This document shows, piece by piece, positions 21,323 to 42,237 of a stretch of DNA of 64,000 nucleotides. The translations under genes and the position numbers were made by a program. This stretch comes from Patescibacteria group bacterium (GTDB taxonomy: Bacteria; Patescibacteriota; Minisyncoccia; Phycocordibacterales; UBA918). Positions within the stretch are counted from its first letter, which is position 1. Every line of letters begins with the position of its first letter. Under the pieces are notes generated by a model. The model saw nothing but the letters and a program-made list of their open reading frames with translations, was not told the origin of the DNA and made no database searches. The stretch lies in assembly GCA_019752815.1 (NCBI GenBank), contig JAIELQ010000005.1, forward strand, positions 49,625-113,624, given 5' to 3'.

Positions 21323-21494
21323 GTGACTAGCTTATGTGGTTATACAAAATTAGTAAAGAGGGATTGTAATGAAAGGAGTGAAGATACGGCATAAAGGCAG
21401 TTGCGCAAAATGTGGCCTTTGCGTACAATACTATAAATACTTAATCAAGTTAAGTATATTACCAACTGACCAAATTAAAAAACTTAAACTTCGT

Positions 21495-27819: not shown

Positions 27820-28182
27820 TTAGGTAGTATAGCAAATCAAAGAGGGAATAGAGAATATGGAATATTGAAGATAAAATAGTCATTTGCATATTGGAAACAA
27901 GTGGTATAATTAAATCATGTTAGAACCTCATGACATTCAAAAATTGATGGAAGTCCTTGCAACGAAAGAGGATATTCGTGACGTTAAAGAGAACTTAGGG
28001 TCAGTCGAAGATATTTTGAGTAATCTCGTAACGGCAACTGATCGCTTTGGTAAGTAGAACTGAAATGCTAAATCAGGAATATCTGGTGTTAAAAGATCGT
28101 GATAGTCGGTATGAACGGTGGTTTTTACAAATTGCAGAAAAAGTTGGCGTTACATTAACTCCTTAATATATTGCTAAATAAC

Positions 28183-28216
28183 AAAAAAGTCCTCACAAAT
28201 TGTGAGGACTTTTTTG
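28183..28216. terminator. Bidirectional terminator (murA on minus, small ORFs on plus)
   Basis: AAAAAAGTCCTCACAAATTGTGAGGACTTTTTTG. Confidence 0.75.
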
Positions 28217-28225
28217 TTGAAGTTA

Positions 28226-29725
28226 TTAAAACTCATCGAGATATTTAATGTCTGCACCGAGACTGGCTAATCGTGCAACGAGGTTTTCATAACCGCGGTT
28301 GATACTGTAGATATTACGCAGGACCGAGCGGCCGGATGCGCCCAACATCGCAATCAAGAGAATCGTAGCGGGACGCAAGGCGGGCGGGCAGATGAGCTCA
28401 GCTGATTTTAGCTGTGTTGGTCCGGTGATGTAGATACGGTGAGGGTCGGCCAAAACGGTGTCAGCACCGAGTTTTTCGAGCTCGGTAAAATAAATGGCGC
28501 GTTTTTCATACATCCAATCGTGAATGAGGGTTTGACCAGCTGCCTGGGTCGCAATCACCGCGTAGAAGGGGAGGTTGTCGGCATTGAGTCCAGGGTAGGG
28601 CCTGGAGTGTACTTTTTCTGGTGAAGCGTGTAGTTTGCTTGGTTTGATTTTTAAATCTACCAGTTTGGTGTATTCATTGACTGCTAGGTATGGTTTTGAT
28701 GTGCTGTATTGCAGACCCATTTTTTCGAGTACCAACAGTTCAAGCTCAAGAAACTCAATTGGAGCTCGGGTAATAGTGATGGCAGAATTAGTAACAATTG
28801 CAGCTGCAATAAAAAACATACTGTCGGTTGGATCCTCGGCCAGGGTGTATTCAATATCGACATTGATAGTACGAACACCGGTAACGGTTAGTGTGGTGGT
28901 GCCGATACCTTCAATTTGCACCCCAAATAATTTTAAGAAGACACAGATTTCCTGCACCATGTAGTTGGCACTCGCATATTTGATGACCGTTGTGCCTTCG
29001 TTAAGTGCTGCTGCGAACAGGACATTTTCAGTCACGGTGTCCCCGGATTCGTAAAGAATAATTTCAGACGGTTTTTTAAGTACGGTTGCGACTCTGAATT
29101 CTTTTTCTGTGGTTTCTATACTGACACCATAGTGTTCAAGGGCGTAAAAATGAGGGCGAACGGTGCGACTGCCGAGTTTGCAACCGCCTGATTGCGGAAG
29201 TGCAAAACTCGGCATAGTGTGAATCAGTGCACCAATAAACATTACAATACTGCGGGTTTTGCGGGCAGCATCAACATCGATTTTTTTGAGATCAAATTTT
29301 TTGGGTGGGGTGATCGTAATGGTACTGCCGCTCCAAACAATATGCATGCCGATACTCTGTAGCACCTCGATAATGCGGTGCACTTCCTCGATACGAGGCA
29401 TTCTGTGGAGGGTGGTGACGCCGCGGTTTAATAGTGACGCACATAGAAGTCCCACTGCACCATTTTTACTGGTATTAGTTTCAATGGTGCCAGATAGCTT
29501 CTTGTTCCCATTGATTTCGACATTAACGGTCCCAGGTGAGAGGGTGATGAGATTTTTACCGAGTGCGGTCCCGATTTTTTTCAGCATCTCGGCACTGATG
29601 TTTTGGGTGCCTGATTCAAGACGAGCAATAGCGCTTTGTGTAGTTTTAAGTTTTTTAGCGAGTTGTGTTTGGGTGAGTCCGACTGACTCTCTCAAATCAG
29701 CAATTCTGTTTCCAATATTTTCCAT
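28226..29725 (-). CDS. murA: UDP-N-acetylglucosamine 1-carboxyvinyltransferase fused to an N-terminal XRE-type HTH domain
   Basis: Residues 1-60, IADLRESVGLTQTQLAKKLKTTQSAIARLESGTQNISAEMLKKIGTALG, form an HTH_XRE. The remaining roughly 430 aa has the MurA/EPSP fold (SKNGAVGLLCASLL and related motifs). 499 aa in total. Confidence 0.85.
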   Translation of the reverse strand: MENIGNRIADLRESVGLTQTQLAKKLKTTQSAIARLESGTQNISAEMLKKIGTALGKNLITLSPGTVNVEINGNKKLSGTIETNTSKNGAVGLLCASLLNRGVTTLHRMPRIEEVHRIIEVLQSIGMHIVWSGSTITITPPKKFDLKKIDVDAARKTRSIVMFIGALIHTMPSFALPQSGGCKLGSRTVRPHFYALEHYGVSIETTEKEFRVATVLKKPSEIILYESGDTVTENVLFAAALNEGTTVIKYASANYMVQEICVFLKLFGVQIEGIGTTTLTVTGVRTINVDIEYTLAEDPTDSMFFIAAAIVTNSAITITRAPIEFLELELLVLEKMGLQYSTSKPYLAVNEYTKLVDLKIKPSKLHASPEKVHSRPYPGLNADNLPFYAVIATQAAGQTLIHDWMYEKRAIYFTELEKLGADTVLADPHRIYITGPTQLKSAELICPPALRPATILLIAMLGASGRSVLRNIYSINRGYENLVARLASLGADIKYLDEF

Positions 29726-29754
29726 ATATTTAATAGTAAAAACGACGCACTTCA

Positions 29755-29838
29755 GCGTTGGTCTACGGTAAAACTTTTCTCACCATACCAGTACGTATGG
29801 CTCGCAAAGTTTTCCTTGCCCGCCTTGAATTGCATTCG
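29755..29838 (+). repeat. Structured intergenic repeat, copy 3
   Basis: GCGTTGGTCTACGGTAAAA..hairpin CCATAC/GTATGG..TTTTCCTTGCCCGCCTTGAA. Confidence 0.7.
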
Positions 29839-29932
29839 TTTATAACTATCAAATAATATAGCATATCTGCTATATACATGTCATTTTCTAATTGGTGGAA
29901 AAGTGCTGAAGGTGGTACACTAGGGGCCTTAT

Positions 29933-30946
29933 ATGTTCGACAGATTTACTCCTAAAATTGGTATCGACCTCGGGACGACGAGTGTCTTAGTGTTTGTGCC
30001 TGGACAGGGAATTGTACTCAATGAGCCGTCGGTAGTAGCGGTAGGTGAAAACAATACGGTCCTCGCCGTGGGAGCAGAAGCCAAACAAATGATTGGACGA
30101 ACACCGGACACTATTCGGGCGTACCGGCCGATGAAAGATGGAGTAATTGCTGATTATCGCGTGACTGAGGCAATGTTACGATACTTTTTGCAAAAGGCAC
30201 TGAGCAAATACAATATTTTTAAACCTGATGTGATGGTATCGGTACCAGCGGGAGTAACCTCAACCGAACGGCGCGCAGTGGTAGAAGCCACGATTAAAGC
30301 GGGTGCGCGTAATGCCTACGTAGTAAAAGAACCAATTCTCGCTGCTATTGGGGCGGGGGTTCCGATCTATGAACCCCAAGGACACATGATTGTTGATATT
30401 GGTGGTGGAACGATTGACGTGGCAGTGATTTCTCTCGGTGGGATTGTAGCTGCAAACTCAGTCAAATGTGCCGGTAACCGCATTGATGCTGCTATCATTA
30501 ATTTTGTTAAAAAGACACGGAATTTATCGATTGGTGAAAAAACGGCTGAAGAAGTAAAAATCAAAGTAGGTTCAGCTCTGCCCCTTGAAGAAGAGTTGGT
30601 GATGGAACTCAAAGGTCGCGATGTCTTTACCGGATTGCCACGGACAACGGAGATTAAAACTAATGAAGTGGTGCGAGCAATTGCTGTTGAACTGCGTGAA
30701 ATGGTTAAAGCCATTAAAGATGTATTCCAGGATACGCCCCCAGAATTAGCATCAGATATTATTGATGGAGGGATTATTATGACCGGAGGAACTTCACAGT
30801 TACGAAATTTTCCAGAGTTAGTTAAACGACGGACGGGAGTGAAAGCACAGCTCGCAGATCAGGCGTTGTTTTGTGTGGTTAAGGGGACGGGTGTGGCACT
30901 GGAGCACCTCACCACTTACAAGCGTGCCATTTTAACAAAACGCTAA
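29933..30946 (+). CDS. mreB: Rod shape-determining protein MreB (paralog 1)
   Basis: IGIDLGTTSVLVFV..LNEPSVVA. Actin/Hsp70 fold motifs DIGGGTIDVAVISLGGIV and IIMTGGTSQL. Confidence 0.92.
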   Translation: MFDRFTPKIGIDLGTTSVLVFVPGQGIVLNEPSVVAVGENNTVLAVGAEAKQMIGRTPDTIRAYRPMKDGVIADYRVTEAMLRYFLQKALSKYNIFKPDVMVSVPAGVTSTERRAVVEATIKAGARNAYVVKEPILAAIGAGVPIYEPQGHMIVDIGGGTIDVAVISLGGIVAANSVKCAGNRIDAAIINFVKKTRNLSIGEKTAEEVKIKVGSALPLEEELVMELKGRDVFTGLPRTTEIKTNEVVRAIAVELREMVKAIKDVFQDTPPELASDIIDGGIIMTGGTSQLRNFPELVKRRTGVKAQLADQALFCVVKGTGVALEHLTTYKRAILTKR

Positions 30947-30961
30947 ATTTGAGTGATTACT

Positions 30962-31040
30962 TTGTTGTGCTCGAAATTGTTTCGGTCAACGTATAAACAT
31001 ACGTCTCTCTCAAAAATTTCAACCACGCCTCGTACTCATC
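30962..31040 (+). repeat. Structured intergenic repeat, copy 6 (more diverged)
   Basis: TTGTTGTGCTCG..TCAACGTATAAACATACGTCTC..CAACCACGCCTCGTACT. Begins 16 nt after the mreB stop. Confidence 0.6.
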
Positions 31041-31257
31041 TCACATTAAGTATTTTGTGACGAAGCGGTAATTTGGCGCATCTGCTTTGTTGCTCTTCAA
31101 AAAATTGTTTTCAATGTGCAAGAAGCACACCTCAAACAATTTTTTTTCGTGCGCCGCGCATCTATCGCCAAATAACCACTTCTTTTGAATATTGACATAA
31201 CGTATTTTAATGTTATTGTGTAGCAAGTTTTTAACTGGCTACTAAAGGGAGAAAGCC

Positions 31258-31827
31258 ATGAAGTTCATCAAGATCCTTCTCACCATCTGTGCTCTCAACA
31301 TCGGTGGTGGTATGGCCACTGCACAAGAACAGTCGTATTGTGATCAGTACTTCTACGGTATCATCGACCAAGATACGGTCGGAATGTTCATCGACAAAGT
31401 TCTCCTCGATGAATGTGATGCTGGTTCACAATTGCGAGTCTTTATCAGTTCCGCTGGCGGTGATCCGCAAGCTGCAATGGGTCTCTACGACTGGCTCCAG
31501 CTACTTGAGGCGGATACTGTAGCCATGGGCGATGTAGCTTCCGCAGCGGTACCGCTCTTTCTGGCAGGTAAGGTCCGTACGGCGCTGCCGAATGCGAGGT
31601 TTTTGATACATCCAGGATACACGTTTGTTCAAGAAAAAATGACTGATCGAGATTTTGCAGAACTCAAAGAGAGGGATGCTTGGGACGATGAGATGTACAA
31701 TCGCATCATCGCTGAACGTACCGGTTTGGAGCGAAGCAAAGTAGATAAAATGGTCGATCCCTTCACCGTGTTTGGAGTAGATGAAGCAAAAGAATGGGGG
31801 TTCATTACTCAAGCGTCGCTTAACTGA
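31258..31827 (+). CDS. Secreted ClpP/S14-like serine peptidase homolog
   Basis: Signal peptide MKFIKILLTICALNIGGGMATA. ClpP-like core ISSAGGDPQAAMGLYDWLQ..VAMGDVASAAVPLFLAGKVRTALPNARFLIHP. Confidence 0.6.
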   Translation: MKFIKILLTICALNIGGGMATAQEQSYCDQYFYGIIDQDTVGMFIDKVLLDECDAGSQLRVFISSAGGDPQAAMGLYDWLQLLEADTVAMGDVASAAVPLFLAGKVRTALPNARFLIHPGYTFVQEKMTDRDFAELKERDAWDDEMYNRIIAERTGLERSKVDKMVDPFTVFGVDEAKEWGFITQASLN

Positions 31828-31972
31828 AAAGAGCTTAGCTCAACTTCGGTTGGGCGGCTTTTTTATTTTGTTTCACCGCATTCATGATTGAGCTGTGTAG
31901 AGGGTGGGGTGAGTACGTGAGCTGATGCGGTACACTATAGATATACTATATGTACGTTGTTTGTTCTTAAGT

Positions 31973-33085
31973 ATGTTTGAGCGGTCATCAAAACAATTCT
32001 CTAGTCCAGAAGAGGAAGTGCAGTACTTGCGCGAGCGTATTGCGGTGCGTGAACGTGAGCTCTTGGGTAGAACAACCGAGGTAGATCATGCTGATTACGA
32101 AACGATTGCGAAACAGGAACTTTATGAGTATGGGATGTTTACGCCTAAAGTGATTTTAAATCCTGACCATGCGTTTGATGATCACGACTTGGCGTCGCAC
32201 ACTGAATTAATCGTAACGAGTCATGATCCTGCGACAGAAATCGTGACTGTTGCCTTTGAAAAGGGAATTCGCAATGCCTTGACACTACTCGAAAATGTTG
32301 AGAGTCCATACGTGATTGATGAGGTGCATCGTCAGCTCATTGAGTACATCAAACAAGGAAGGACAACTCAGGATTTAAAAGAAGGAGTACCACCGTGGGC
32401 CATTATGCATATGTCACTATTTGAAGTGACGTTGCCAGAACTCAAAGGGGCAAATGACAAAGAGTATCAACTGGCGGATTTGGTTGGCATGATGGAACAG
32501 TTATTTGCCGGAATGCGCAGTATTGCTCATAAAGATCCTCGTAATACCATGGTATTTGAAATTGCAGTCGCAGACAGTAGTGAGGATATTGTGTTTTATA
32601 CTGCAGTACCAAGCGAATTTGTGACGTTGTTTGAAAAGCAAACCCTGTCACTTTTTCCACGTGCAGTAATTGTTGAACAACTTCACGACTACAATATTTT
32701 TGTACCAGAAGGTACTAGTGTGGTGGCTGATGTGACTCTCAAGAAACACCCGATCTATCCAATTCGTAGTCACGCAGAGTTCACAACGGATCCACTTAAC
32801 GTTATTCTTAATGCGTTTTCTAAAATTGAACATGATGGTAGTGGTGCTGCCATGCAGTTTATTATTCGGTACCCGAAAACTGACTACCGAAAAAATTATT
32901 CAGAAATTCTTAAAAAAGTACAAAAGGGGACTAAACCAAAAGAAGCAATTGCGCGCAGTACGTTTAGTGGAGAGCTTACTGCTTCGGTATCCGAATTATT
33001 TTTTACTAAACCAAAAAAGAAGGTGAATTCGAACCGGCCAAAGAAGTCGATCAAGAAGCGGTTGAGCTGTTTAATAAAAAACTAA
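31973..33085 (+). CDS. Hypothetical protein (370 aa, Lys-rich C-terminus)
   Basis: ORF 31925..33085. The likely start is the Met at 31973. No domain recognised. Immediately upstream of the P-loop ATPase. Confidence 0.5.
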   Translation: MFERSSKQFSSPEEEVQYLRERIAVRERELLGRTTEVDHADYETIAKQELYEYGMFTPKVILNPDHAFDDHDLASHTELIVTSHDPATEIVTVAFEKGIRNALTLLENVESPYVIDEVHRQLIEYIKQGRTTQDLKEGVPPWAIMHMSLFEVTLPELKGANDKEYQLADLVGMMEQLFAGMRSIAHKDPRNTMVFEIAVADSSEDIVFYTAVPSEFVTLFEKQTLSLFPRAVIVEQLHDYNIFVPEGTSVVADVTLKKHPIYPIRSHAEFTTDPLNVILNAFSKIEHDGSGAAMQFIIRYPKTDYRKNYSEILKKVQKGTKPKEAIARSTFSGELTASVSELFFTKPKKKVNSNRPKKSIKKRLSCLIKN

Positions 33086-33156
33086 ATTCACAAATTGTTG
33101 AGACTAATATTCGGATTATAGTCTCGGCCAAACTACCACACCGAGCGAGTCAAATC

Positions 33157-34740
33157 ATGTCGGAATTGGCAGCTACACTTCATCAATTTGCAACCGTTGA
33201 TAGTAATCAGTTTGTGATCAATGAGCGTAAGGGTAGTGTATTGCGCGCAGTCGAAAAAAGTTTTTCATTCAGAGAGTTTAATCCAAAAACGAGCGTCCCG
33301 CTGTCACTTACAGAATTATCAACCATTATGCACTTTACCGGCAATGGTATTACATCCTCGCCACAATATAAGCAGTCTGGAGCGATGACTGCAGCAGCGC
33401 CTACTGATACACCTACAGAAGGTACACTTTTGGGAGTCAATAAACACCGTAACACCGAAAAGGAGATTTATATGACTGAGCGTGATCGCATGCGACATTT
33501 TTACGTGATTGGTCAAACGGGTACTGGTAAATCAGTATTGCTTAAAAATGTCATCATTCAAGATATTTTAAATGGTGACGGTGTTTGTATGATAGACCCG
33601 CATGGAACCGACATCGTAGACGTACTAGGCTCAATTCCACCAGAGCGTGAAAAGGATGTAATTTACTTTGATCCATCGGATCTAGAGAATCCAATTGGGC
33701 TTAACATGCTGGAGTTTGATGAACAAAAACCAGAGCAGAAAACATTTGTGGTTAATGAATTATTTTCAATTTTCCAAAAATTGTATGGAGGAAATCCAGA
33801 ATCAATGGGGCCAATGTTTGAACAGTATTTTCGTAACGCAACGTTGCTCGTGATGGAAGATCCAGATTCAGGGAATACCCTAATGGATATTTCACGGGTA
33901 ATGGCTGACGCCAAGTATCGGCGGATGAAATTAGAGAAAGCTAAAAATCCGGTCGTGGTACAGTTTTGGCGTGAGATTGCGACTAAAGCCGGTGGTGAAG
34001 CTTCACTCGAAAACATAGTGCCCTATATCGTATCAAAATTCGACGTGTTTACCGCCAACGACTACATGCGTCCAATTATTGGTCAGCAAAAATCGGCTTT
34101 CAACTTTAGACAGATTATGGATGAGAAGAAAATCTTACTTGTGAATCTTTCTAAAGGCCGTTTGGGTGAAATTAATGCCAATCTTATTGGTATGATTATT
34201 GTAGGTAAAATCTTGATGGCAGCATTGTCTCGAGTAGATAATGAAGCGATGGACTTTCCACCGTTCTATTTGCATATTGATGAGTTCCAAAACGTATCAA
34301 CTCCATCAATTGCTTCAATTTTGTCAGAAGCTCGAAAGTATAAATTGAGTCTCACTATGGCTCATCAATTTATTGCGCAACTTGATCAAGATATTAAAGA
34401 TGCGGTATTTGGTAACGTGGGCTCAGTCGCAGCATTTCGAATTGGATCTGAAGATGCTCATTTTTTGGAGAGTCAGTTTGCTCCTGTATTTAGTGCAAAC
34501 GACCTAATGAATGTGCCAAATTGGAACGCTATGATACGGATGTTAGCTAATGGTACTCCAACAAAACCATTTAGTATTGGTACCATGCCACCTTTTAAAG
34601 CGGATATTACCAGAGTGGCAGAACTAAAAGCTATGTCCGCGAAAAGGTACGGACGTCCACGCGCCGAAGTTGAGGCTGAAATCGCTGCCCGCTATGCCAA
34701 GGAGCCTGTTTCGCTCCCCCCGCTAAGTGCTATGATATAG
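33157..34740 (+). CDS. FtsK/HerA/TraG(VirD4)-superfamily P-loop ATPase (soluble, 527 aa)
   Basis: Walker A HFYVIGQTGTGKSVLLKN. Walker B FYLHIDEFQN. Downstream ARKYKLSLTMAHQFIAQLD resembles the RKYG..L.TQ motif of HerA/TraG/VirB4-type ATPases. No TM helices. Confidence 0.65.
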   Translation: MSELAATLHQFATVDSNQFVINERKGSVLRAVEKSFSFREFNPKTSVPLSLTELSTIMHFTGNGITSSPQYKQSGAMTAAAPTDTPTEGTLLGVNKHRNTEKEIYMTERDRMRHFYVIGQTGTGKSVLLKNVIIQDILNGDGVCMIDPHGTDIVDVLGSIPPEREKDVIYFDPSDLENPIGLNMLEFDEQKPEQKTFVVNELFSIFQKLYGGNPESMGPMFEQYFRNATLLVMEDPDSGNTLMDISRVMADAKYRRMKLEKAKNPVVVQFWREIATKAGGEASLENIVPYIVSKFDVFTANDYMRPIIGQQKSAFNFRQIMDEKKILLVNLSKGRLGEINANLIGMIIVGKILMAALSRVDNEAMDFPPFYLHIDEFQNVSTPSIASILSEARKYKLSLTMAHQFIAQLDQDIKDAVFGNVGSVAAFRIGSEDAHFLESQFAPVFSANDLMNVPNWNAMIRMLANGTPTKPFSIGTMPPFKADITRVAELKAMSAKRYGRPRAEVEAEIAARYAKEPVSLPPLSAMI

Positions 34741-34745
34741 GTACT

Positions 34746-37502
34746 ATGAAAGAGGGCTATCCATCAAATAAATTGGATGTGGCGTATCGAGGCGACTTCG
34801 AAGACCCTGCGCGGACTGCTTTTTCTAATGCACAGTTGCCGCCCCAAAGAGTGACACTCGAAGATTTTGCAAAATATCCGTTTGGTCCTTCTGAGATAAC
34901 TTCAAAAAGTGATTACGTAAAACATGTGCTCACCTGGTTTTCAAAAGCACTCATCGATGCTGGATATAAACCCAATGAAGTTGATAATCTCATTCGTAAA
35001 TCATTAGATACTATTGATTTTAATAGACCGGAAGCGATGTACGTAGCTGATATCAATCGTATTATTCAAAATTTTTATAAGGCAGCTCCTGGTAAAAATA
35101 GTTCGACTGAGGCAACTGAGGTTCCAGCTCCAGTTGCTGCTGGGCAAGCTGAGATTATTGAGACTTCTGTTCAGTCAACACCAACACCAATAACGCCTGT
35201 TGTACCGCAACAGAGTGAAACGCACATTTCTCCTTTTGCACAAAAAGTTGAACCGTTTCGGTCGGCAGATGATGGTGTGCCCAAAGAGGTCACAATTAAT
35301 ACTAGAACTCCAGATCTGAGTTCGGTTTCGAGTGTAGAAATACAACAAGAAGAAGAAACTCTGCCACTCGCTACAGAATTTGATGATCGAGCGCAAGAAT
35401 ATGCCGAATACGGTAATCGTTCAATAAAAATAACACCTTCTTTCCCTGAAGCTACTAACGTGACAGCGGTTAAAAAAGATAATTTCGAAAATCCTCCTCA
35501 GGTGACTCGTAATGAACAGTTAGCTTCGACACCGCTCATTCTAACCCCTGAAATGCGGGTTGTTGATCCGAATGAACCAATTGTGCTTGAGACAGTGAGT
35601 GCTGATGACGAGGTCGCGTTGGAGAAGCGGAATGTTGGTTTAGAATATCAAAGCAAGCTTGATGCGCTCAACACACAAGCGTTTAATCATGAAGCGTACA
35701 TAGAATTTGTGTTTGATGTGCACACGGGTCTTAGACATGAATATGATGGAGTAATCAATTCAGCGCGAAATAACCTAAAGCGATTTGATGGCTTTTATGC
35801 ACCGTCCACAATTGAAAAACAAGCACTGCAATTATTATCAAGTCTCCAAGGTCAGTACGCCAAGATGCAGAATGTACAATCTGATTACGGTCTTATTCGA
35901 GGCGCACTGACTGAGAAATTAAGTGAGAGTCCTACCGACGCAATCGAAGCCGAAATTAAGTCTTTGTCACAGAGTTATCTTGATGCTACACAAAAACTTT
36001 TTGCAAACATTAGCAAGCTTGAAGGTTTGATAGAAGAAGTGAAACAAGAAGAAAAACCGTCAGTAGCAGAAGTGTATCGGGCACAATTTGAAAAACTGCA
36101 GACTGAAGGTAATCAGGTGTTGCGGTCACTATCAGCCAGTCACCCCTTGTATGAGCGGCTAAAGACAGCTGTAGAAGTTGATTTACAAAAAATTATTGCA
36201 CAAGCGTCTGTTGAAAATGGGGGAGATAAAGCGGTACTTGAAAACTCCTCGAACTTTATAGCGAGAAGGGATCAAATTAAAGAGCTGATTTCATTTATCA
36301 AAAAAGAACAAGAGTATCAAGATTTCTTTGCGCGTGCTCGGGCGCGGGTGCAAAAACTTGAATCACAATTTGAAATAATTCCGACGGGAGATAAAGGAAT
36401 GCAGGTAAAAACAATCCTTGCAGAAAATATTGTAAAAATTAAACAGGCTCTTAGTGGAACTGATTCACAAACCGCCACCGTAGGCGTGCTTGAGAACTTG
36501 AATCAACAAAAAAGCATTATTGAGATGTTACTTCGTGATTCAGAAGAGTCAATTTCGTCATTACCGCAGAGTGAGACTGTCGTACAACAAGAAGTGGGGT
36601 CAAGGGTGTTAACTGATGCTGAGTTGATTGCCGTTGTTGAAAAAACTCCGCTTGTTGAAAATATGGCAGAAGTGCAGGATCGCTATCAGATGCAGCGGGC
36701 AGAGATTGAAAAATATCTAACGTACCAACGTGAGCAACAGAGCAGGGAACGTTTCTCTGGACCCGTGTATGAAAAAGCAAAACGACTAGCAGGCATGCTA
36801 CATTTGGGTACGATTGGTAAAGCGGCTGCGGTACTTTTGACGCTCGCTGGACCAGCTGGTGTCTCGAGTCAAAAATCAGACCTGAATATTCTTGGTGATC
36901 TCAACATGTCAGCAGGTGTGTTAGCGCAACCGGATTTTGATTACGCCGCTATTTCAGAATTTCTCCGGACGGCTGAGGGATTTAGGGTGATTTCTGAAAC
37001 AGTAGCACCGGCAGTGTCAACTGTTGCTCCAGAGTTACCAAAAGTACCAGTGTCAGTAGAGACTGTGCCCGGTGTGATTTTGCCAGACATGGTCAGTCGT
37101 TCAAATGACGAAACCCAGGATATGCCATCAGAAATCTTTAGTGATTTAGCTGATGAGGTACCAAAAGACAAGGGTATTGAATTTGCAAGTCCAAATAAAT
37201 CTAATGTTCCAGAAGCTTTACGTAAGCCATACAAAATAAATTTTGGTGATAAATTCTGGGATATTAATGAGGGAAAAACGCTCGCTGGTAAATTGCCGGT
37301 CATGTCACAAATAAATCCTTCCTTAAAACAAGCACTCATAGACCGTATGCGCGATAAAATTAATAATGACAGAGCACTCAGAGACGCTATTGGCGGGTTT
37401 GGTAAAAATGCTGATCAGCTCCGTACCGGAGAATTAATGAATCTCGACAAACTTAATGAACTGGGGGTGAGTGTAGCCGCTGACTACAGTTATCTAAAAT
37501 AA
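34746..37502 (+). CDS. Giant hypothetical coiled-coil protein (918 aa)
   Basis: Long predicted helical or coiled-coil regions with one internal hydrophobic segment (AAAVLLTLAGPAGV). No enzymatic motif recognised. Start is 6 nt after the ATPase stop. Confidence 0.55.
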   Translation: MKEGYPSNKLDVAYRGDFEDPARTAFSNAQLPPQRVTLEDFAKYPFGPSEITSKSDYVKHVLTWFSKALIDAGYKPNEVDNLIRKSLDTIDFNRPEAMYVADINRIIQNFYKAAPGKNSSTEATEVPAPVAAGQAEIIETSVQSTPTPITPVVPQQSETHISPFAQKVEPFRSADDGVPKEVTINTRTPDLSSVSSVEIQQEEETLPLATEFDDRAQEYAEYGNRSIKITPSFPEATNVTAVKKDNFENPPQVTRNEQLASTPLILTPEMRVVDPNEPIVLETVSADDEVALEKRNVGLEYQSKLDALNTQAFNHEAYIEFVFDVHTGLRHEYDGVINSARNNLKRFDGFYAPSTIEKQALQLLSSLQGQYAKMQNVQSDYGLIRGALTEKLSESPTDAIEAEIKSLSQSYLDATQKLFANISKLEGLIEEVKQEEKPSVAEVYRAQFEKLQTEGNQVLRSLSASHPLYERLKTAVEVDLQKIIAQASVENGGDKAVLENSSNFIARRDQIKELISFIKKEQEYQDFFARARARVQKLESQFEIIPTGDKGMQVKTILAENIVKIKQALSGTDSQTATVGVLENLNQQKSIIEMLLRDSEESISSLPQSETVVQQEVGSRVLTDAELIAVVEKTPLVENMAEVQDRYQMQRAEIEKYLTYQREQQSRERFSGPVYEKAKRLAGMLHLGTIGKAAAVLLTLAGPAGVSSQKSDLNILGDLNMSAGVLAQPDFDYAAISEFLRTAEGFRVISETVAPAVSTVAPELPKVPVSVETVPGVILPDMVSRSNDETQDMPSEIFSDLADEVPKDKGIEFASPNKSNVPEALRKPYKINFGDKFWDINEGKTLAGKLPVMSQINPSLKQALIDRMRDKINNDRALRDAIGGFGKNADQLRTGELMNLDKLNELGVSVAADYSYLK

Positions 37503-37507
37503 ACACT

Positions 37508-37801
37508 ATGATCACTTCACAACACATTCAAGCGGCGCAAACTAAATTAGGTCTCGATACGCTATCACCGTCAGACGCGGAAGCAATTTTAAATAGATTT
37601 GGCTACGATATTGTGGTGGCCACGATGACTGAGTTCATGACGTCTCTGGGGGAATGGGAGCAGAATTCATTTGAAAGTTGGATTGAAGCACATCAAGCTG
37701 AACCAGACATGCTCGAACAATTGATGTTGCTCTATCCACAATTTGGAAAAATCCTCACGGAAGAAATTTTAAAATTAAAAAACGCACACGAAGTAGTGTA
37801 G
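37508..37801 (+). CDS. Small helical hypothetical protein (97 aa)
   Basis: Starts 6 nt after the giant ORF. Acidic helical protein. Confidence 0.5.
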   Translation: MITSQHIQAAQTKLGLDTLSPSDAEAILNRFGYDIVVATMTEFMTSLGEWEQNSFESWIEAHQAEPDMLEQLMLLYPQFGKILTEEILKLKNAHEVV

Positions 37802-37867
37802 TTTTGTAAAGTAATACACAGAAGCGTAGGTGCATATACTTTTGTCTCGTAACGACAGTGGTATGAT

Positions 37868-39631
37868 ATGCGTATGACAGCTGATGCTCGTTCTTTGGGG
37901 GTAACCGTACCTGAACAGTTTGACTTCGATTCTCAAGCGGGAATTTTGTTTGTGTTACGTGCTATTAGAGCAGCAGATTTAAGTGGTGCCGATAAAAACA
38001 GTCTTAAAGATTTAGTCTTTCTCTACAATACAGGTGGAAAAGATGAATCGGTAAAGAAAAAATTAGCTGATACTCTGAGTGTACATGGAGTTACTCCGGC
38101 TACAGTTTTACTCGAGGTGCCCAAGCAGGCTGCAGTTCCGAGAGAAGAAGCGAAACCATTAACTACTCCTGGTTTTATGGGTGGACGATTGACACCAGTA
38201 TTTCATCCACCAGTCGTAGCAACTCCTGCCGCCCCAATACCGGTTACAGCACCAGCACCTGTGTCAGTTGTACAAGTTCCTCAAGTTGATGTTCCGGTGA
38301 TACAAATTAAACCCGAAACCCAACCAAACGTTGTAGTACCTAAAGTAGAAAAAGTTACTCCTGTTGCACCAGTAGCTCCGCCAGTTCGACCAATAGTACC
38401 AGTGCCACAGCCGGTAACTCCAGTGCCAAACGTGACGCCTGAAGCAGTCAATATCGAGGTTAAAAAAGATATCCCAACACCTGTTCAGACTCCGGTTGAG
38501 GTGGCGCCTGCCTACGTCGCGAGTCGTATGGAGCGTATCCGAGTTATTAAATCTGATGTTAACGCTCGAGTAGGTAATCCGGTGAATCTTGTAGATGTCG
38601 ACAATGCGCTTGGTCGCGAATATATGAGCGCGCTGCTGGAAGCAATGAAGCTGCTCAGTAGTGCCAGTGAACAAGAGTCAACTATTGCGATGAACCGATT
38701 AGAGACAGTATACGCCCAGGTGCTGTTACTGCTTGATGCCCAGCAAAAAACCGAATCCGCTGTTGTGTCACCCGTTACGCCCCCGGCACCAGTGATGCCA
38801 GTTGTTCCAGTTACTCCCGTGCCACCAGTACTGCCGGTGGTGCCAGTTGTACCTGTAGCCCAGCCAGCAGCTCAAACACCAATGCCTGAGGTCGTAGCAC
38901 CGGTTTCAATTCCTGTGGTGTCGAGTCCGGTTGTGCCGTCTCCGGTGGTAGTACCACAGCCAGTTTTACCATCGATTGTCGAGCCCGCACTTGATGTGAT
39001 TGTTCGCAGTAAAGTATCTGATAAACCGACTACACCACCGGTAGTGAGCAATTGGGAAACGGCTGCTCATGCTCCAGTCGATATGGTTTCAAGTGTGGGG
39101 GCTACAGTCACACCGCCTGATGTAGTAATGGTAAACCGTATGAGTACTCCACCAGCGGAACCATTGCGTCCGGTAGTGTCACCAGTAGCACAGGTGTACC
39201 AGCCGGAAGTTACTCCGTCTGTAGGTGAAGTACAGCCACTGCGAGCCATCACCGAATTACCAACTGCTGACGAGGTGAGTGCGGTAGAAGCTATGAGTAG
39301 TAATCCTCTGTACACCAAAGATATTGATGCCGGTTTGGATCAATTGCTCAGTGAGTGGGCAATCTTCAAAAAAAGTGGTTTGTTTGGAACGGGACCGAAA
39401 GGGCGTGAACATCCGCTCTATATCAAAATATCACCGATGCAAGTTCCACTTATCCTCTCTGGTCGTTTTGAAGGTTCGACCCAGGAAATTAAACAAAGTA
39501 TTACTGATTACATGAATGGTTGGCGGTATGAACAGGGAATTGTGTACGAACCAAACGAAACGTTTGATCAGTATCTCAGACGCGTTATCAGGCATATCTT
39601 AGATTTGCAGAAAACAAAACGTCGTTCATAA
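37868..39631 (+). CDS. Pro/Val-rich repetitive protein with a conserved C-terminal globular domain (587 aa)
   Basis: Central PV-rich repeats (PVTPVPNVTPEAV, PVMPVVPVTPVPPVLPVVPVVPVAQP). C-terminal domain ..LYTKDIDAGLDQLLSEWAIFKKSGLFGTGPKGREHPLYIKI.. Confidence 0.55.
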   Translation: MRMTADARSLGVTVPEQFDFDSQAGILFVLRAIRAADLSGADKNSLKDLVFLYNTGGKDESVKKKLADTLSVHGVTPATVLLEVPKQAAVPREEAKPLTTPGFMGGRLTPVFHPPVVATPAAPIPVTAPAPVSVVQVPQVDVPVIQIKPETQPNVVVPKVEKVTPVAPVAPPVRPIVPVPQPVTPVPNVTPEAVNIEVKKDIPTPVQTPVEVAPAYVASRMERIRVIKSDVNARVGNPVNLVDVDNALGREYMSALLEAMKLLSSASEQESTIAMNRLETVYAQVLLLLDAQQKTESAVVSPVTPPAPVMPVVPVTPVPPVLPVVPVVPVAQPAAQTPMPEVVAPVSIPVVSSPVVPSPVVVPQPVLPSIVEPALDVIVRSKVSDKPTTPPVVSNWETAAHAPVDMVSSVGATVTPPDVVMVNRMSTPPAEPLRPVVSPVAQVYQPEVTPSVGEVQPLRAITELPTADEVSAVEAMSSNPLYTKDIDAGLDQLLSEWAIFKKSGLFGTGPKGREHPLYIKISPMQVPLILSGRFEGSTQEIKQSITDYMNGWRYEQGIVYEPNETFDQYLRRVIRHILDLQKTKRRS

Positions 39632-39639
39632 TAGACAGC

Positions 39640-40257
39640 ATGCACAACCACCATGCTGTTTTATTATTGAGTGACTCTTATGCCCAAAGTGGTTATGCGC
39701 CTACTTCAGACAAGGAAAAAATAGAGATTGAAATCAATACCTTTGATACGTTAGCTATTTCTGATGTACGCAAGATTATTCAATCGGCCTTTGTAAAACC
39801 GCTTGCAGCTGAGGTAAAAATTGTGGTCATTGAAGCCAAGGGGATAGCTCGCGAAGCACAACAGGCACTTTTGAAAATATTTGAAGAACCACCGCTCACC
39901 ACAAAGTTTATTTTGGTGCTGCCGGGTATAGAGGGGTTGCTCCCAACGGTACTCTCGCGTGTCAGTGTGCCATTTGGGTATTCGCTGGCGGCGCGAACTA
40001 CCAATCCTTTTTTTACGATTTTTCAATCAAGTTCCTATGCTGGCCGACTTGAGTGTATTGCCAGAATTACCAAAGATAAAGATAGTGATCAAATTGAGCT
40101 ATTACGCTCGGGAGTACTGTGGCTTTTGTCACAAACACCACTACCTCCGCATGCAGCACAGTTAGCATATTGCGTAGATACTATGAATGTACGTGGCGCC
40201 TCAAAAAAAATGTTGCTTGAAGAAATTGCTTTGCTTTTGCCTGTACAGGTTAACTAG
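39640..40257 (+). CDS. holB: DNA polymerase III delta-prime-like subunit (truncated, 205 aa)
   Basis: IEAKGIAREAQQALLKIFEEPP matches the NALLKtLEEPP motif of clamp-loader delta-prime. Lacks the N-terminal Walker region. Confidence 0.6.
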   Translation: MHNHHAVLLLSDSYAQSGYAPTSDKEKIEIEINTFDTLAISDVRKIIQSAFVKPLAAEVKIVVIEAKGIAREAQQALLKIFEEPPLTTKFILVLPGIEGLLPTVLSRVSVPFGYSLAARTTNPFFTIFQSSSYAGRLECIARITKDKDSDQIELLRSGVLWLLSQTPLPPHAAQLAYCVDTMNVRGASKKMLLEEIALLLPVQVN

Positions 40258-40307
40258 TGCTATACTCTGTTAAATAGTGGGATAATTAATATAATGAGTA
40301 AGAAATT

Positions 40308-40850
40308 ATGGATAACGGATACGAAAAAAGACTAAAAGAGGTAATCGAATTTTTACAAAAAGAATTTGTGGCAATTAGGACCGGACAAGCGACTCCGGCG
40401 CTCTTGGATAGTGTAAAGGTAGAAAGTTATGGCACGTATATGCCCATCCAGCAAATAGGTTCAATTGGCGTTGAAGATGCGCGCACCCTCCGTATTTCTA
40501 CCTGGGACACAACGCAGATTCCAGCCATTGAACGAGCAATTCGCGATTCGGATTTAGGGGTTTCTGTCTCTTCTGATTCAGCTGGCCTGCGAGTTATTTT
40601 CCCTGATTTAACCGCCGAACGTAGGACTCAGATTATAAAGATAGCTAAAAGTAAACTCGAAGACGCACGTGTGTCAGTTCGGGCCGTGCGTGATGACGCC
40701 ATGAAGGAGATTGAAACTGCCCTTAAAGCTGGAGATATTAGTGAAGACGAAAAACATACCAAGCGTGAACAAGTACAGAAAAATGTAGATCTCACCAACC
40801 GTACCTTAGAAGCTGTGTTTGAGAAGAAGGAAGAGGAAATTTCCCACTAG
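40308..40850 (+). CDS. frr: Ribosome recycling factor
   Basis: 180 aa. FVAIRTGQATPALLDSVKVESYG...IPAIERAIRDSDLG is typical of Frr. Confidence 0.92.
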   Translation: MDNGYEKRLKEVIEFLQKEFVAIRTGQATPALLDSVKVESYGTYMPIQQIGSIGVEDARTLRISTWDTTQIPAIERAIRDSDLGVSVSSDSAGLRVIFPDLTAERRTQIIKIAKSKLEDARVSVRAVRDDAMKEIETALKAGDISEDEKHTKREQVQKNVDLTNRTLEAVFEKKEEEISH

Positions 40851-40870
40851 CCTTATTTGATATTTATATT

Positions 40871-41956
40871 ATGACTACTGTTCTCATTTTTTTAGCCGTA
40901 CTATTCGTACTTATTCTGGTACATGAGTGGGGTCATTTTATTGTGGCAAAGCTCACCCGGATGCGGGTTGATGAATTTGCCATTGGGTTTCCACCGCGAT
41001 TGTTCTCTCGTAAATATGGTGAAACTGAATACAGTTTAAATGCTTTGCCACTCGGTGGATATGTACGTATTTATGGTGAAGATCCAACAGCGGTTGAGGG
41101 TGAGGTTGCTGATAAAAGTCGAGCCTTTGGATCGCGACCAAAATGGGCCCAGGCCCTGGTATTGCTCGCTGGGGTGACCATGAACTGGATTTTTGCTTGG
41201 TTTTTGCTGGTAGTTATTATGTTAGTGGGTGTCCCAACCCAGATTACAGAAAAGGACGCAACCGACAATTCGGTAATATATATCGAAAGTGTGCTCGAGG
41301 GTTCTCCGGCAGATACCGTATTACCGCCACAATCAAAACTTATCAGGGTAGAAAGTGGTGACTCTGTGCTCAATCCAATTCTGCCGTCTACCTTTAGTGA
41401 GTTTGTGGCGAGTCGTGCGGGAGAAACAATTGATATAACGTATCAGGATGTGAATGGTGCAGAAAATACCGTGTCAGTTATTCCGCAGACCGGTGTTATA
41501 GAATCTTCACCAGAACGGGCAGCGCTTGGTGTTTCAATGTCATTAGTTGAAACTGTACAAAAACCGCTTGGTACGGCGATTGTGGATGCTGGTATACAAA
41601 CCTGGACGATGACAAAAACTATTGTGGTTGGATTTGGAAAATTAATCACTGGCCAAGTCAGTTTAAATCAAATTTCTGGCCCGGTAGGTATTGCTGGTTA
41701 TGTGGGTGATGCAGCAGCTGTTGGGGTAACAACACTGTTGTACCTTACTGCGTTTATTTCGGTAAACTTGGCTGTGATTAATTTATTACCAATTCCAGCA
41801 CTAGATGGTGGACGACTAGTATTTGTGGCCATTGAAGCGGTAACTCGTCGACCAATTCCGCCAGTGTGGGCGTCGCGAGTTAACTTGGTTGGGTTTGCGG
41901 CACTGATGTTACTTATGTTGCTAGCAACCATTAGCGATATATCCAAGTTATTTTAG
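40871..41956 (+). CDS. rseP: RIP zinc metalloprotease RseP (site-2 protease)
   Basis: HEWGHFIVAKL (HExxH) in TM1. PDZ-containing middle. LNLLPIPALDGG near the C-terminus. Confidence 0.9.
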   Translation: MTTVLIFLAVLFVLILVHEWGHFIVAKLTRMRVDEFAIGFPPRLFSRKYGETEYSLNALPLGGYVRIYGEDPTAVEGEVADKSRAFGSRPKWAQALVLLAGVTMNWIFAWFLLVVIMLVGVPTQITEKDATDNSVIYIESVLEGSPADTVLPPQSKLIRVESGDSVLNPILPSTFSEFVASRAGETIDITYQDVNGAENTVSVIPQTGVIESSPERAALGVSMSLVETVQKPLGTAIVDAGIQTWTMTKTIVVGFGKLITGQVSLNQISGPVGIAGYVGDAAAVGVTTLLYLTAFISVNLAVINLLPIPALDGGRLVFVAIEAVTRRPIPPVWASRVNLVGFAALMLLMLLATISDISKLF

Positions 41957-41984
41957 AGAAGACATCCATAAACGACACACTTCT

Positions 41985-42068
41985 TCGTTGCTGCTGCGGT
42001 ACATTTTCTTCCACCGTACAAGAAGTACGTTTCCAGAAAATGTCCTTGCGCGCCTCGAATTGTACTCG
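41985..42068 (+). repeat. Structured intergenic repeat, copy 4
   Basis: TCGTTGCTGCTGCGGTACATTTTC..hairpin CGTAC/GTACG..ATGTCCTTGCGCGCCTCGAA. Begins 29 nt after the rseP stop. Confidence 0.7.
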
Positions 42069-42237
42069 TTTCTGAATGTCTAATTGAGCATTTGCGTTTA
42101 AAACAATAAAAGGTCGCTTTGCGGCCTTTTATTGTTTTGTGCTACACTTTGAATTATGAAGATTTTTAACTCTCGCCATCTGCCCGTGGGGTAATCTCAC
42201 TACTTAATGCTGTTTTTACTATTTAAAAAAAATTAAT

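Follow-up and report, generated by a model that had tools for sequence, protein, structure and literature searches.

A fixed chromosomal locus of Paceibacteria encoding a soluble VirD4/TraD/HerA-type ATPase with three putative partner proteins

Introduction

Does a soluble ATPase of the HerA/FtsK/VirB4/VirD4 clade, encoded among large proteins of unfamiliar type in a Patescibacteria chromosome, work as part of a dedicated machine, and if so of what kind? An earlier note proposed an undescribed six-gene system at positions 31258-39631 of the window (the whole 64,000-nucleotide stretch of DNA analysed here). VirD4-like proteins are abundant in this group: the available excerpts of Quinonero-Coronel et al. 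2025 (PMC12102498) count 5,713 homologues across 2,918 Patescibacteria genomes, place just 148 of these homologues near virB4, and say of these proteins that exaptation 'cannot be ruled out'. The ATPase described below almost certainly belongs to this "orphan" set of VirD4-like T4CP homologues. Its DUF8128 architecture, its position between mreB and holB, and its three partner families are not described in those excerpts.

Results

Six ORFs lie on the + strand, at 31258-31827, 31925-33085, 33157-34740, 34746-37502, 37508-37801 and 37868-39631. The earlier note had located and oriented all six correctly and taken them for six co-directional genes, but the real genes number five. The second and third ORFs, presented there as proteins of 370 aa and 527 aa, are a single 922-aa ATPase gene split by a 1-nt deletion. 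The 5' part (31973..33019, +), which likely starts at the ATG at 31973, is in the frame of ORF 31925-33085 and encodes an N-terminal helical region and the DUF8128 alpha/beta domain. The 3' part (33019..34740, +) encodes a VirD4/TraD/HerA-type RecA-like core and a conserved C-terminal helical tail. The break itself is at 33013..33019 (+), an A6 run (33013-33018) where in-frame reading needs A7, one nucleotide having been lost relative to the relatives. The frame of the third ORF is open from 33010, and joining the two frames at CCA AAA AAG (33011-33019) gives a 922-aa product that is 87-90% identical, over 100% coverage, to the 922-aa orthologues P0001-P0006, which carry PF26449 (DUF8128). The model phrog_5156 likewise spans both halves, its positions 72-225 matching the 5' half, and relatives L001-L003 run uninterrupted through ...K(V/P)(K/R)KEGE... 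in one frame. The Lys-rich tail ascribed to the 370-aa protein is out-of-frame read-through.

The reading frame of the ATPase is broken in this genome. The deletion creates an in-phase A_AAA_AAG heptamer, and no stimulatory hairpin was found 3' of it (z = 0.6). The surrounding block (25924-43494) contains fourteen homopolymer runs longer than the A-run of the ATPase gene, and its priA, murA, mreB, holB, frr, rseP and aaRS genes match their relatives at full length.

The ATPase core contains all of the motifs reported for it previously, namely GQTGTGKS (Walker A), HIDEFQ (Walker B) and RKYKLSLTMAHQ. Its assignment as a soluble member of the HerA/FtsK/VirB4/VirD4 clade is supported, and hydropathy confirms the proposed lack of a membrane anchor. 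The protein has a single ATPase domain and a soluble N-region of ~460 aa that contains DUF8128. The nearest folds are HerA, TrwB, FtsK and VirB4, with T4CP and HerA scoring above EccC. The NCBIfam TraD and VirD4 models fall far below their cut-offs on the ATPase, as does helicase_HerA, which reaches 14 bits where 970 are required, and neither a HAS-barrel nor a DNA-binding module was recognised.

Directly downstream, 5 nt beyond the stop codon of the ATPase gene, begins the gene for a fast-evolving 918-aa acidic mosaic protein with Pro-rich segments (34746..37502, +; hereafter the "big" protein). Searches against Pfam, NCBIfam, PADLOC and PHROG at E <= 0.1 returned only a sub-threshold match to Pfam DUF713 (E 0.056). 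Together with its same-position counterparts it makes up one single-linkage family of 40 proteins, ranging from 204 to 1652 aa, whose domains are shuffled among lineages. Residues 828-906 (37227..37463, +) form a LysM-like domain with a helical insertion, detected by comparing a profile with PDB chains. The top PDB matches of the profile, built from 17 such domains, contain LysM (LytE, E 8.8e-7; SafA LysM, E 2.9e-5), and the alignment to LytE and SafA takes in both ends of the domain; Pfam LysM itself gives a sub-threshold match to relative L080 (E 0.004). LysM domains are also known in cytoplasmic proteins, for example Kbp. The LysM-like domain is present in 22 of 46 "big" proteins, and in 20 of 22 LysM-bearing relatives the top hydrophobic 19-mer lies upstream of it, ~80-300 aa away in 19. 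These 19-mers are often G/A-rich and score 1.5-2.0 in 13 relatives and lower in the rest. The corresponding segment in the window protein (residues 684-702; 36795..36851, +) is weakly hydrophobic, with a Kyte-Doolittle score of 1.43, and includes a Lys; it is possibly a signal-anchor helix. Short forms of the "big" protein in ~15 species lack both the hydrophobic helix and the LysM-like domain, and in seven species the protein is missing altogether, the 587-aa gene there lying 45-71 nt downstream of the ATPase gene.

The next gene (37508..37801, +) encodes a 97-aa acidic helical protein, a divergent member of a DUF5663-like family comprising the window copy and 26 proteins from other loci (27 members). 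Pfam DUF5663 matches 4 of 24 members, at best with E 3.3e-5, and does not match the window copy. The presence of the 97-aa protein tracks that of a LysM-bearing "big" protein: both occur in 19 loci and neither in 27, with the LysM form alone in 1 and the 97-aa protein alone in 6 (Fisher p = 4e-8, uncorrected for phylogeny).

The last of the partners is a 587-aa scaffold (37868..39631, +) in which three small all-helical domains (~10-80, 212-297 and 465-585) are strung on disordered P/V-rich linkers. AF2 models the greater part of the three domains with pLDDT above 90, and large parts of the linkers with pLDDT below 50. The P/V linkers and conserved C-terminal domain noted earlier are both borne out, by alignments and by matches to the C-domain. 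The first linker carries an invariant F..RP.P.F motif across the family, and in the seven unusually long members that were read the additional length is linker. The C-domain has 541 cluster matches among 1.84 billion representatives and sits C-terminally in 150 of 150 among the matches listed. No match in the PDB was found by sequence or fold, and no relatives of the protein were found beyond its own family.

Spacing within the locus is less uniform than the earlier note's tightly packed genes with 6-nt gaps. Two junctions, after the ATPase gene and after the 918-aa gene, are indeed tight, at 5 nt each, which suggests translational coupling; the remaining gaps between ORFs are 97, 71 and 66 nt. 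The run of same-strand genes extends past 39631, since a short holB (DNA polymerase III delta'; 39640..40257, +; NCBIfam PRK08485, E 2e-17) starts 8 nt after the 587-aa gene, and across loci this gap is mostly below 30 nt. No terminator-like site was found between genes from the ATPase gene to 43521, the only + strand candidates lying within the ATPase gene. On the 5' side is an MreB paralogue (29933..30946, +), 94% identical to the copy in relative L084 and 41% identical to the second mreB of the window (43744-44820). It precedes the ATPase in 66 of 70 loci, with a gap of less than 100 nt in 30 of those 66, and in relatives the transcription unit may begin with it.

The first ORF does not belong with the others. 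Its ClpP-like gene (31258-31827) lies in a cassette (31192..31855, +) with its own promoter-like site (31192-31219) and terminator-like hairpin and T-run (31833-31855). The product fits the proposed secreted ClpP-like peptidase in having a match to Pfam CLP_protease (73.7 bits) and a hydrophobic N-terminus; aligned to ClpP, its Ser and His match but the position of the third catalytic residue, Asp, is Phe. What did not hold was membership of the operon, the gene being absent from the loci of the first 83 relatives. Among 5.8 billion proteins it has 6 other relatives (7 matches with its own source record). The gene recurs in the same slot at one further locus, L084, even though the two ATPases share only 71% identity; the distribution of the ClpP-like gene is therefore patchy. 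The ClpP-like gene is thus a rare, separate cassette outside the conserved core.

That core is widely conserved. Relatives of the ATPase occur in at least 550 genome stretches, the closest relatives of the locus being Kaiserbacteria-type MAGs. The order priA, murA, mreB, ATPase ... 587-aa gene, holB, frr, rseP is kept in 80 of 80 species loci, and 49 of the 50 loci with sufficient downstream sequence encode the 587-aa protein. The co-conservation expected from the earlier note stands for the ATPase and the 587-aa protein and, in most loci, for the "big" and 97-aa proteins, but fails for the ClpP-like protein (0/83). The conserved unit begins with the mreB paralogue and ends with holB; between them lie the genes for the ATPase, the variable "big" protein, the ~97-aa protein and the three-domain scaffold. 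The locus is part of a chromosomal operon that the tiny bacteria of the class Paceibacteria (Parcubacteria, CPR) inherit vertically, single-copy and at one fixed position between mreB and holB class-wide, in a cell-envelope and replication neighbourhood. The remaining window genes are housekeeping genes, including mreB, murA, mreBCD-PBP2 and the start of the dcw cluster. The window contains no T4SS gene and no paralogue of the ATPase, the +-10 kb around the ATPase gene in 83 relatives yielded no paralogue either, and no nuclease (e.g. NurA) was found at the locus, in keeping with the earlier view that this is no canonical T4SS, T7SS, FtsK or HerA-NurA locus.

Discussion

We are confident of the anatomy of the locus as given above. 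That the ATPase, "big", 97-aa and 587-aa genes encode one machine is somewhat favoured, the coupling of the partners being indicated by the 5-nt gaps, the presence of the 587-aa protein in 49/50 loci and the co-variation of the 97-aa protein with LysM-bearing "big" proteins. Gene order alone is no proof of a functional system, as the whole ~20-kb stretch (priA, murA, mreB ... holB, frr, rseP) is equally syntenic. It is conceivable, if rather unlikely, that there is no dedicated system and that the four are unrelated, lineage-specific housekeeping genes caught in a frozen "super-operon" alongside mreB, holB, frr and rseP; the ATPase would then work by itself, for instance in DNA repair or processing as HerA does. 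The suggested translational coupling, the co-variation just mentioned and the placing of the 587-aa gene directly after the ATPase gene (45-71 nt) in seven loci that lack "big" all speak against this, as does the lack of a nuclease partner such as NurA.

Equally improbable in our estimation is an orphan type IV coupling protein. On this view the ATPase would bring substrates to a Patescibacteria T4SS (VirB4, VirB6, pilins) encoded elsewhere in the genome, the 587-aa and 97-aa proteins serving as its adaptors; the variable "big" protein could then be either a substrate or a docking factor for host interaction. Type IV coupling proteins (VirD4, TraD, TrwB, DotL, Cag-beta) have an N-terminal transmembrane domain where the ATPase has its DUF8128 N-region. 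The ATPase gene adjoins neither a T4SS nor a relaxase; it lies on the chromosome in single copy, at a fixed position, and is inherited vertically. The low TraD and VirD4 scores and the lack of T4SS genes in the window and of an ATPase paralogue within +-10 kb in relatives' loci also count against it. In Ca. Southlakia epibionticum, moreover, the T4SS is essential but the t4cp homologue is not, and the T4SS locus has no recognisable coupling protein, according to the excerpts of two studies (PMC12102498, PMC10633639).

T7SS-like export of the 97-aa and/or "big" protein by an FtsK-clade ATPase is very unlikely: the alignment of the 97-aa family shows no conserved WxG motif, the ATPase has one ATPase domain and lacks both an FHA domain and a TM helix, EssA, EssB and EsaA-like membrane proteins are not present, and EccC scores below T4CP and HerA folds. 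An anti-phage defence system of HerA or DndH type with non-canonical effectors, also raised earlier, can be dismissed almost entirely, since PADLOC recognises no system proteins at the locus, no NurA, Sir2, DUF4297 or other effector domain accompanies the ATPase, a pattern scan found no relatives in viral contigs, and a fixed, single-copy, vertically inherited gene with 57-90% identity among species, in hundreds of species, is the opposite of a defence island and equally argues against a mobile element.

The best explanation overall, which we put forward tentatively, is a housekeeping "orphan coupling complex" consisting of a ring translocase, helical adaptors and, in many lineages, an envelope tether. 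By analogy with all of its structural relatives, the ATPase would be a hexameric, ATP-driven polymer translocase, with DNA the favoured substrate because the nearest folds are HerA, TrwB, FtsK and VirB4. The 587-aa scaffold and the 97-aa protein may act as helical adaptors on the ATPase, as the scaffold domains are three small helical bundles on disordered linkers and the C-terminal tail of the ATPase is conserved; the arrangement would resemble TraM on TraD, CagZ on Cag-beta and the DotL adaptor complex. In place of the transmembrane domain that coupling proteins have, the 918-aa protein could locate the ATPase in trans: its cytoplasmic part would position the motor, and its LysM-like domain would bind peptidoglycan outside the membrane. 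The tether is suggested by the profile match to LytE and SafA and by the hydrophobic helix upstream in 20/22; the weak, Lys-containing segment of the window protein (1.43) counts against it, and it cannot be universal given the seven species without "big" and the ~15 with short forms. Counting against the reading as a whole are the broken ATPase frame in this genome and the failure to recognise a DNA-binding module.

Bitopic wall-anchored division and landmark proteins offer parallels, among them FtsN and DamX (SPOR) and FimV and HubP (LysM). Like these, the 918-aa protein would combine a large cytoplasmic part, one hydrophobic helix, a Pro-rich spacer and a domain of peptidoglycan-binding type. 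It differs from FimV and HubP in that its LysM is C-terminal and its topology N-in, which is the opposite, and in that the tether is missing in some lineages. Targeting of FtsK-like motors is paralleled by SmeA-SffA and the soluble SftA, to which the ATPase may be likened as a soluble motor that would need a partner for localisation. No sequence homology to FtsN, DamX, FimV, HubP, SmeA-SffA or SftA was found.

A contact-dependent transfer or attachment apparatus, as the earlier note envisaged, is a possible, putative function. Most Patescibacteria bins are reported to carry FtsK/SpoIIIE (PMC10469934), so a simple replacement for FtsK is not needed. An envelope-tethered housekeeping translocase is a reading we hold more tentatively still; such a machine would be linked to growth or division in Paceibacteria, serving neither defence nor mobility.

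Results

A single ATPase gene is split by a frameshift

The region contains all six plus-strand open reading frames described in the earlier note, encoding a ClpP-like protein (31258-31827), a 370-aa protein (ORF2, 31925-33085), a 527-aa ATPase (ORF3, 33157-34740), a 918-aa protein (34746-37502), a 97-aa protein (37508-37801) and a 587-aa protein (37868-39631). They do not, however, amount to six genes, as ORF2 and ORF3 are parts of one. The 824-position profile phrog_5156 matches ORF2 over its positions 72-225 and ORF3 over positions 384-806, and the ORF3 frame is open upstream as far as 33010, encoding there ...TKKEGEFEPAKEVDQEAVELF.... Joining the frames at CCA AAA AAG (33011-33019) gives a 922-aa product that aligns along 100% of its length with proteins likewise of 922 aa, at 87-90% identity; more than 100 further matches reach 67% identity or above. 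The matched proteins of this type bear PF26449 (DUF8128) together with DUF87 and T4CP domains, and orthologues are called as single proteins of ~920 aa. Since one profile spans both reading frames and the 922-aa matches are full length, the Lys-rich tail formerly ascribed to the 370-aa protein is an out-of-frame read-through.

Loci L001-L003, from the three closest relatives checked, read ...K(V/P)(K/R)KEGE... within one frame at this point. By comparison the window has CC followed by A6 where A7 is needed, a 1-nt deletion, which may be a sporadic assembly error or a recent mutation. Systematic homopolymer assembly errors were not seen: the same block holds 14 other, longer homopolymer runs, and the genes checked in it have full-length matches in relatives. 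The deletion (33013-33019) creates an A_AAA_AAG heptamer in phase for -1 slippage, and this heptamer is a classic dnaX-type slippery site. If the deletion is real, spontaneous -1 slippage could partially rescue the full-length ATPase. We rejected a conserved programmed -1 frameshift of the dnaX type because the frameshift is not common to the relatives and because no stimulatory hairpin was found downstream of the heptamer, where the RNA fold is no better than that of shuffled sequence (z = 0.6). The case carries a lesson for annotation, namely that split ORFs at homopolymers can pass for extra 'system' genes.

The ATPase is a soluble member of the VirD4/HerA clade

The split gene encodes one soluble VirD4/HerA-clade ATPase. 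Its C-terminal half matches Pfam DUF87/HerA, T4SS-DNA_transf and TraG-D_C, each above cut-off, and its core conforms to the HerA fold. A RecA-like nucleotide-binding domain with Walker A and Walker B is present, as is a T4CP profile match, and the Walker A GQTGTGKS, the Walker B HIDEFQ and the RKYKLSLTMAHQ motif were all found as originally read. Across 69 orthologues, Walker A, Walker B, the RKY region and the C-terminal tail (RYGRPRAEVEAEI..RY) show little or no variation. The original assignment to the clade of HerA, VirB4 and VirD4 is supported. The cut-offs of the NCBIfam equivalogs for TraD, VirD4 and VirB4 are missed by a wide margin: SXT_TraD reaches 51.8 of the 366 bits required and conju_CD1115 (VirD4-like CD1115) 34.5 of 250. 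As to the all-alpha domain that coupling proteins carry within the nucleotide-binding domain, Pfam TrwB_AAD_bind reaches 17.7 bits, under its 20.5 cut-off, and covers the P-loop region only.

In canonical coupling proteins (VirD4/TraD/TrwB) an N-terminal transmembrane domain anchors the hexamer, whereas no N-terminal transmembrane segment was found in the window ATPase, whose sole hydrophobic stretch (731-756) lies within the ATPase region. The protein is thus without a membrane anchor, as first supposed. The FtsK/SpoIIIE combination of motor profile, gamma (KOPS-reading) domain and N-terminal membrane domain was likewise not found in it. An AF2 model of an intact 922-aa orthologue (P0001) has a mean pLDDT of 68; the N-domain (145-460) is mostly confident and a helical insert (580-710) is poorly predicted (pLDDT below 50).

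Distant homologues at 21-34% identity occur in Bacillus phage G (gp156) and SPO1 (gp27.4) and on Priestia, Haladaptatus, Streptomyces and Sulfolobus plasmids. In phage G, phage YungSlug, Priestia and one Haladaptatus the matching stretch takes in most of the DUF8128 region as well, and the gene adjoining the phage G homologue is annotated as VirB-like. A phage origin was considered on the strength of phrog_5156 and the distant Bacillus phage and plasmid homologues and set aside: the neighbourhoods of these homologues are uninformative, and a pattern scan found no relative of the ATPase in viral contigs.

The locus is conserved among housekeeping genes

Conservation of the ATPase is class-wide and vertical, at a fixed housekeeping locus. 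A scan of the genome collection returned at least 550 matched stretches encoding a relative, from which 80 species loci were kept, labelled Kaiserbacteria, Nomurabacteria, Paceibacteria, Parcubacteria or generically; ATPase identity among the retrieved species loci is 57-90%. ORF calling and phmmer on 83 loci, the neighbourhood check that the earlier note had proposed, yielded one recurring order: priA(-), murA(-), mreB(+), ATPase, [variable protein], [~97-aa protein], 587-aa protein, holB, frr, rseP, an aminoacyl-tRNA synthetase gene and a second mreB. The first mreB paralogue (29933-30946 in the window) immediately precedes the ATPase operon in 66 of the 70 species, with a gap below 100 nt in 30 of those. 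The second (43744-44820) heads mreC-mreD-PBP2, and the two are ~41% identical when the copy of the first from L084, a more distant relative, is compared with the window's second. The 587-aa protein is encoded in 49 of 50 loci, mostly less than 30 nt from holB, which in the window (39640-40257) encodes a short, 205-aa delta' subunit best matched by the PRK08485 model (206 positions).

Within the window, the uniformly tight 6-nt spacing first described is nearly correct at two junctions, 3' of the ATPase gene and 3' of the 918-aa gene (5 nt each); the remaining gaps are 97, 71 and 66 nt. The co-directional run extends into holB across an 8-nt gap and on through frr, rseP and the aminoacyl-tRNA synthetase gene, and the first strong terminator-like hairpin is at 43521. 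As the whole block is syntenic, gene order alone does not prove that the four genes from the ATPase to the 587-aa protein cooperate.

Other genes in the window encode ATP synthase, Fpg, Fmt, PriA, an HTH-MurA fusion, MreBCD-PBP2 and RsmH-FtsI-Mur ligase. A Pfam search of 20 other large ORFs in the window found housekeeping and surface-type proteins only, and neither T4SS components (VirB4, VirB6) nor a relaxase; no ATPase paralogue was found in the window or in the 83 loci. Given these surroundings, the idea that the ATPase belongs to a T4SS lying just outside is refuted for the window and for 10 kb on either side of the relatives' loci. A mobile or defence-island setting is very unlikely. A defence system, which the earlier note had entertained, retains next to no probability in our assessment: PADLOC does match the ATPase, weakly (mad8, E 8e-15, and HerA models), but none of its partners, and NurA, Sir2 and DUF4297 were not found beside it, the neighbours having no above-threshold Pfam or NCBIfam match and no PADLOC match.

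Some further features of these loci deserve mention. The MurA encoded at 28226-29725 (-) combines an N-terminal XRE-type HTH (HTH_3, E 4.9e-14, residues 8-59) with the enolpyruvyl transferase; the fusion was also called in L001 and L084, while L003 shows the HTH end only, at a contig edge. One locus labelled 'Acidimicrobiales bacterium' (L046, JBLIMJ010000020.1) carries the Paceibacteria-typical block of ATPase, variable, 97-aa and 587-aa proteins, holB, frr and rseP on a contig that begins just 5' of the ATPase, and is probably mis-binned. Surface or secreted-type proteins in the window comprise a 798-aa DUF11 protein (15768-18164, -), a fasciclin-domain protein (21369-22148, +) and a CAP-domain protein (57608-58669, -).

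Three lineage-specific families accompany the ATPase

Three lineage-specific partner families stand in tight order with the ATPase. The most variable is that of the 918-aa protein. Proteins encoded at this position range from 204 to 1652 aa, and seven species have none; single linkage joins 40 of these proteins, with the window's among them, into one family in which domains are shuffled. This variable partner ends in a LysM-like domain of ~80 aa (window residues 828-906), present in 22 of 46 members, with the consensus KEYTVQKGDTLWDIAE...GLRSGNADLIYPGEKLNL. The top matches of its profile are LysM proteins (LytE, E 8.8e-7; SafA, E 2.9e-5), with start and end motifs aligned, and the domain carries an insertion of ~35 aa. 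Pfam searches of nine diverse members returned just sub-threshold LysM; the model scores 17.5 bits against a cut-off of 20.9 on the L080 protein, and none is reported for the window protein. In 20 of the 22 proteins the 19-mer of highest hydrophobicity precedes the LysM-like domain, at a distance of ~80-300 aa in 19; that of the window's lineage scores weakly (1.43) and includes a Lys. Such an arrangement is consistent with a bitopic protein in N-in, C-out orientation that binds peptidoglycan at its outer end, a topology suggested by sequence; short forms have neither the hydrophobic helix nor the LysM-like domain. The upstream helix in members from L009-L083 is often G/A-rich (for example VVGAGVLGAVTGGAAAAAL), resembling glycine-zipper oligomerising helices. 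A second C-terminal domain of ~120 aa, 'Y', is widespread in the family and missing from the window's lineage.

The 97-aa family has 27 members, of which 24 were scanned; four match Pfam DUF5663 (PF18908; best E 3.3e-5) and the window's copy does not. It tends to occur with the LysM-bearing form of the variable protein: 19 loci have both, one the LysM-like domain only, six the 97-aa protein only and 27 neither (Fisher p = 4e-8, uncorrected for phylogeny). T7SS-like export, in which the 97-aa protein would be a WxG-type substrate, is very improbable. Its match to HP0062 is non-significant (E 0.043), no WxG motif is conserved in the family alignment, and the ATPase carries just one ATPase domain, without any TM helix, where a type VII motor would have the multi-domain form with TM and FHA.

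The 587-aa protein is predicted by AF2 to consist of three small helical domains (~10-80, 212-297 and 465-585), most of each at pLDDT above 90, joined by linkers that are in large part below 50. An invariant F..RP.P.F in the first linker (residues ~101-110; R105, P108, F110) stands out amid this disorder and is probably a docking peptide. The C-terminal domain, rightly described as conserved, has phmmer matches in 541 clusters among 1.84 billion representatives, is C-terminal in all 150 listed, and its relatives are 60-84% identical; no relative outside the protein's own family was found among these representatives, and the PDB gave no sequence or fold match. Seven unusually long members differ in linker length and composition. 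Comparisons with hhalign among the 97-aa protein, the three 587-aa domains, the ATPase N- and C-terminal regions and the domains of the variable protein detected no homology.

The ClpP-like gene is a separate cassette

The ClpP-like cassette is independent of the core formed by the ATPase and these three partners. Its protein does have the signal-like N-terminus and ClpP-like character first attributed to it, scoring 73.7 bits on Pfam CLP_protease (cut-off 20.2) and matching ClpP chains in the PDB down to E 6e-15, though falling far under the cut-offs of the NCBIfam ClpP equivalogs. Two of the ClpP catalytic residues have counterparts, Ser in GDVASAA and His in LIHP. A complete Ser-His-Asp triad was not found in the alignment, as Listeria ClpP1 residue 172, which we take to be the catalytic Asp, aligns with Phe and an Asp stands two residues upstream. 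The protein has only seven matches in a database of 5.8 billion proteins, its own source record included. Its gene was not found in the first 83 loci and occurs again in the mreB-to-ATPase slot of L084, whose ATPase is 71% identical; in closer relatives (ATPase 86-90% identical) the slot is taken by a Bax1-I gene or a 157-aa gene, or no gene was detected there. It also has the region's best promoter-like site (31192-31219) and, right after its stop, a hairpin with a T-run (31833-31855). We treat the peptidase not as part of the system, where the earlier note had placed it, but as an accessory cassette in a variable slot.

Discussion

Neither the ATPase superfamily nor the occurrence of orphan T4CP homologues among Patescibacteria is new. 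What we did not find described is the module: the DUF8128 architecture, for which we found no mention in the literature, the fixed position between mreB and holB, the LysM-bearing mosaic protein, the DUF5663-like protein and the family-restricted scaffold.

Our leading, if tentative, interpretation is a housekeeping translocase linked to growth or division, with DNA the likelier substrate. The ATPase would work as a hexameric translocase and, as it has no membrane domain, the variable bitopic protein would hold it in place at the envelope. The 587-aa and 97-aa proteins, both helical, may act as adaptors of the ATPase, by analogy with TraM, CagZ and IcmSW, the adaptors of canonical coupling proteins. 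FtsK/SpoIIIE is reported from most Patescibacteria bins (PMC10469934), which weakens a simple replacement of FtsK.

Two alternatives are unlikely to about the same degree. One is that the module serves as coupling apparatus for a T4SS encoded at a distance. Against it, the T4SS locus of Ca. Southlakia epibionticum is without a recognisable coupling protein (Wang et al. 2023, PMC10633639), and Quinonero-Coronel et al. (2025, PMC12102498) describe the VirD4-like homologue of that organism as dispensable and its T4SS as essential, which in their view leaves room for exaptation. Their count is 5,713 VirD4-like homologues across 2,918 genomes of Patescibacteria, of which no more than 148 lie near virB4. 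The other alternative is that there is no dedicated system, and here the synteny of the whole block weighs against reading cooperation from gene order, while the paired occurrence of the 97-aa protein and the LysM-like domain speaks against this alternative.

A fuller reading, possible though doubtful as a whole, is that Paceibacteria exapted a conjugation-type coupling ATPase into a vertically inherited core cell-biology machine. A soluble DUF8128-VirD4/HerA ring motor would be co-transcribed with the MreB paralogue and held at the envelope by a bitopic protein that evolves fast and is anchored through its LysM end. Two lineage-specific adaptors, the DUF5663-like protein and the three-domain scaffold without relatives outside its family, would serve this motor, and DNA or protein would be moved at division or host contact, apart from the known Patescibacteria T4SS.

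Much of bacterial diversity belongs to the Patescibacteria, and to our knowledge hardly any of the core genes specific to their lineages has been assigned a role. What was vaguely an 'orphan T4CP homologue' has here become a defined module of a conserved ATPase and three partner families with domain boundaries, with a likely peptidoglycan anchor and a fixed place beside an MreB paralogue. For a phylum of which little is understood, the module is a solid lead that lends itself to testing. If the module is one machine, it would be a case of conjugation hardware exapted for housekeeping and would offer a handle on macromolecule segregation, import and export in ultra-small episymbionts.
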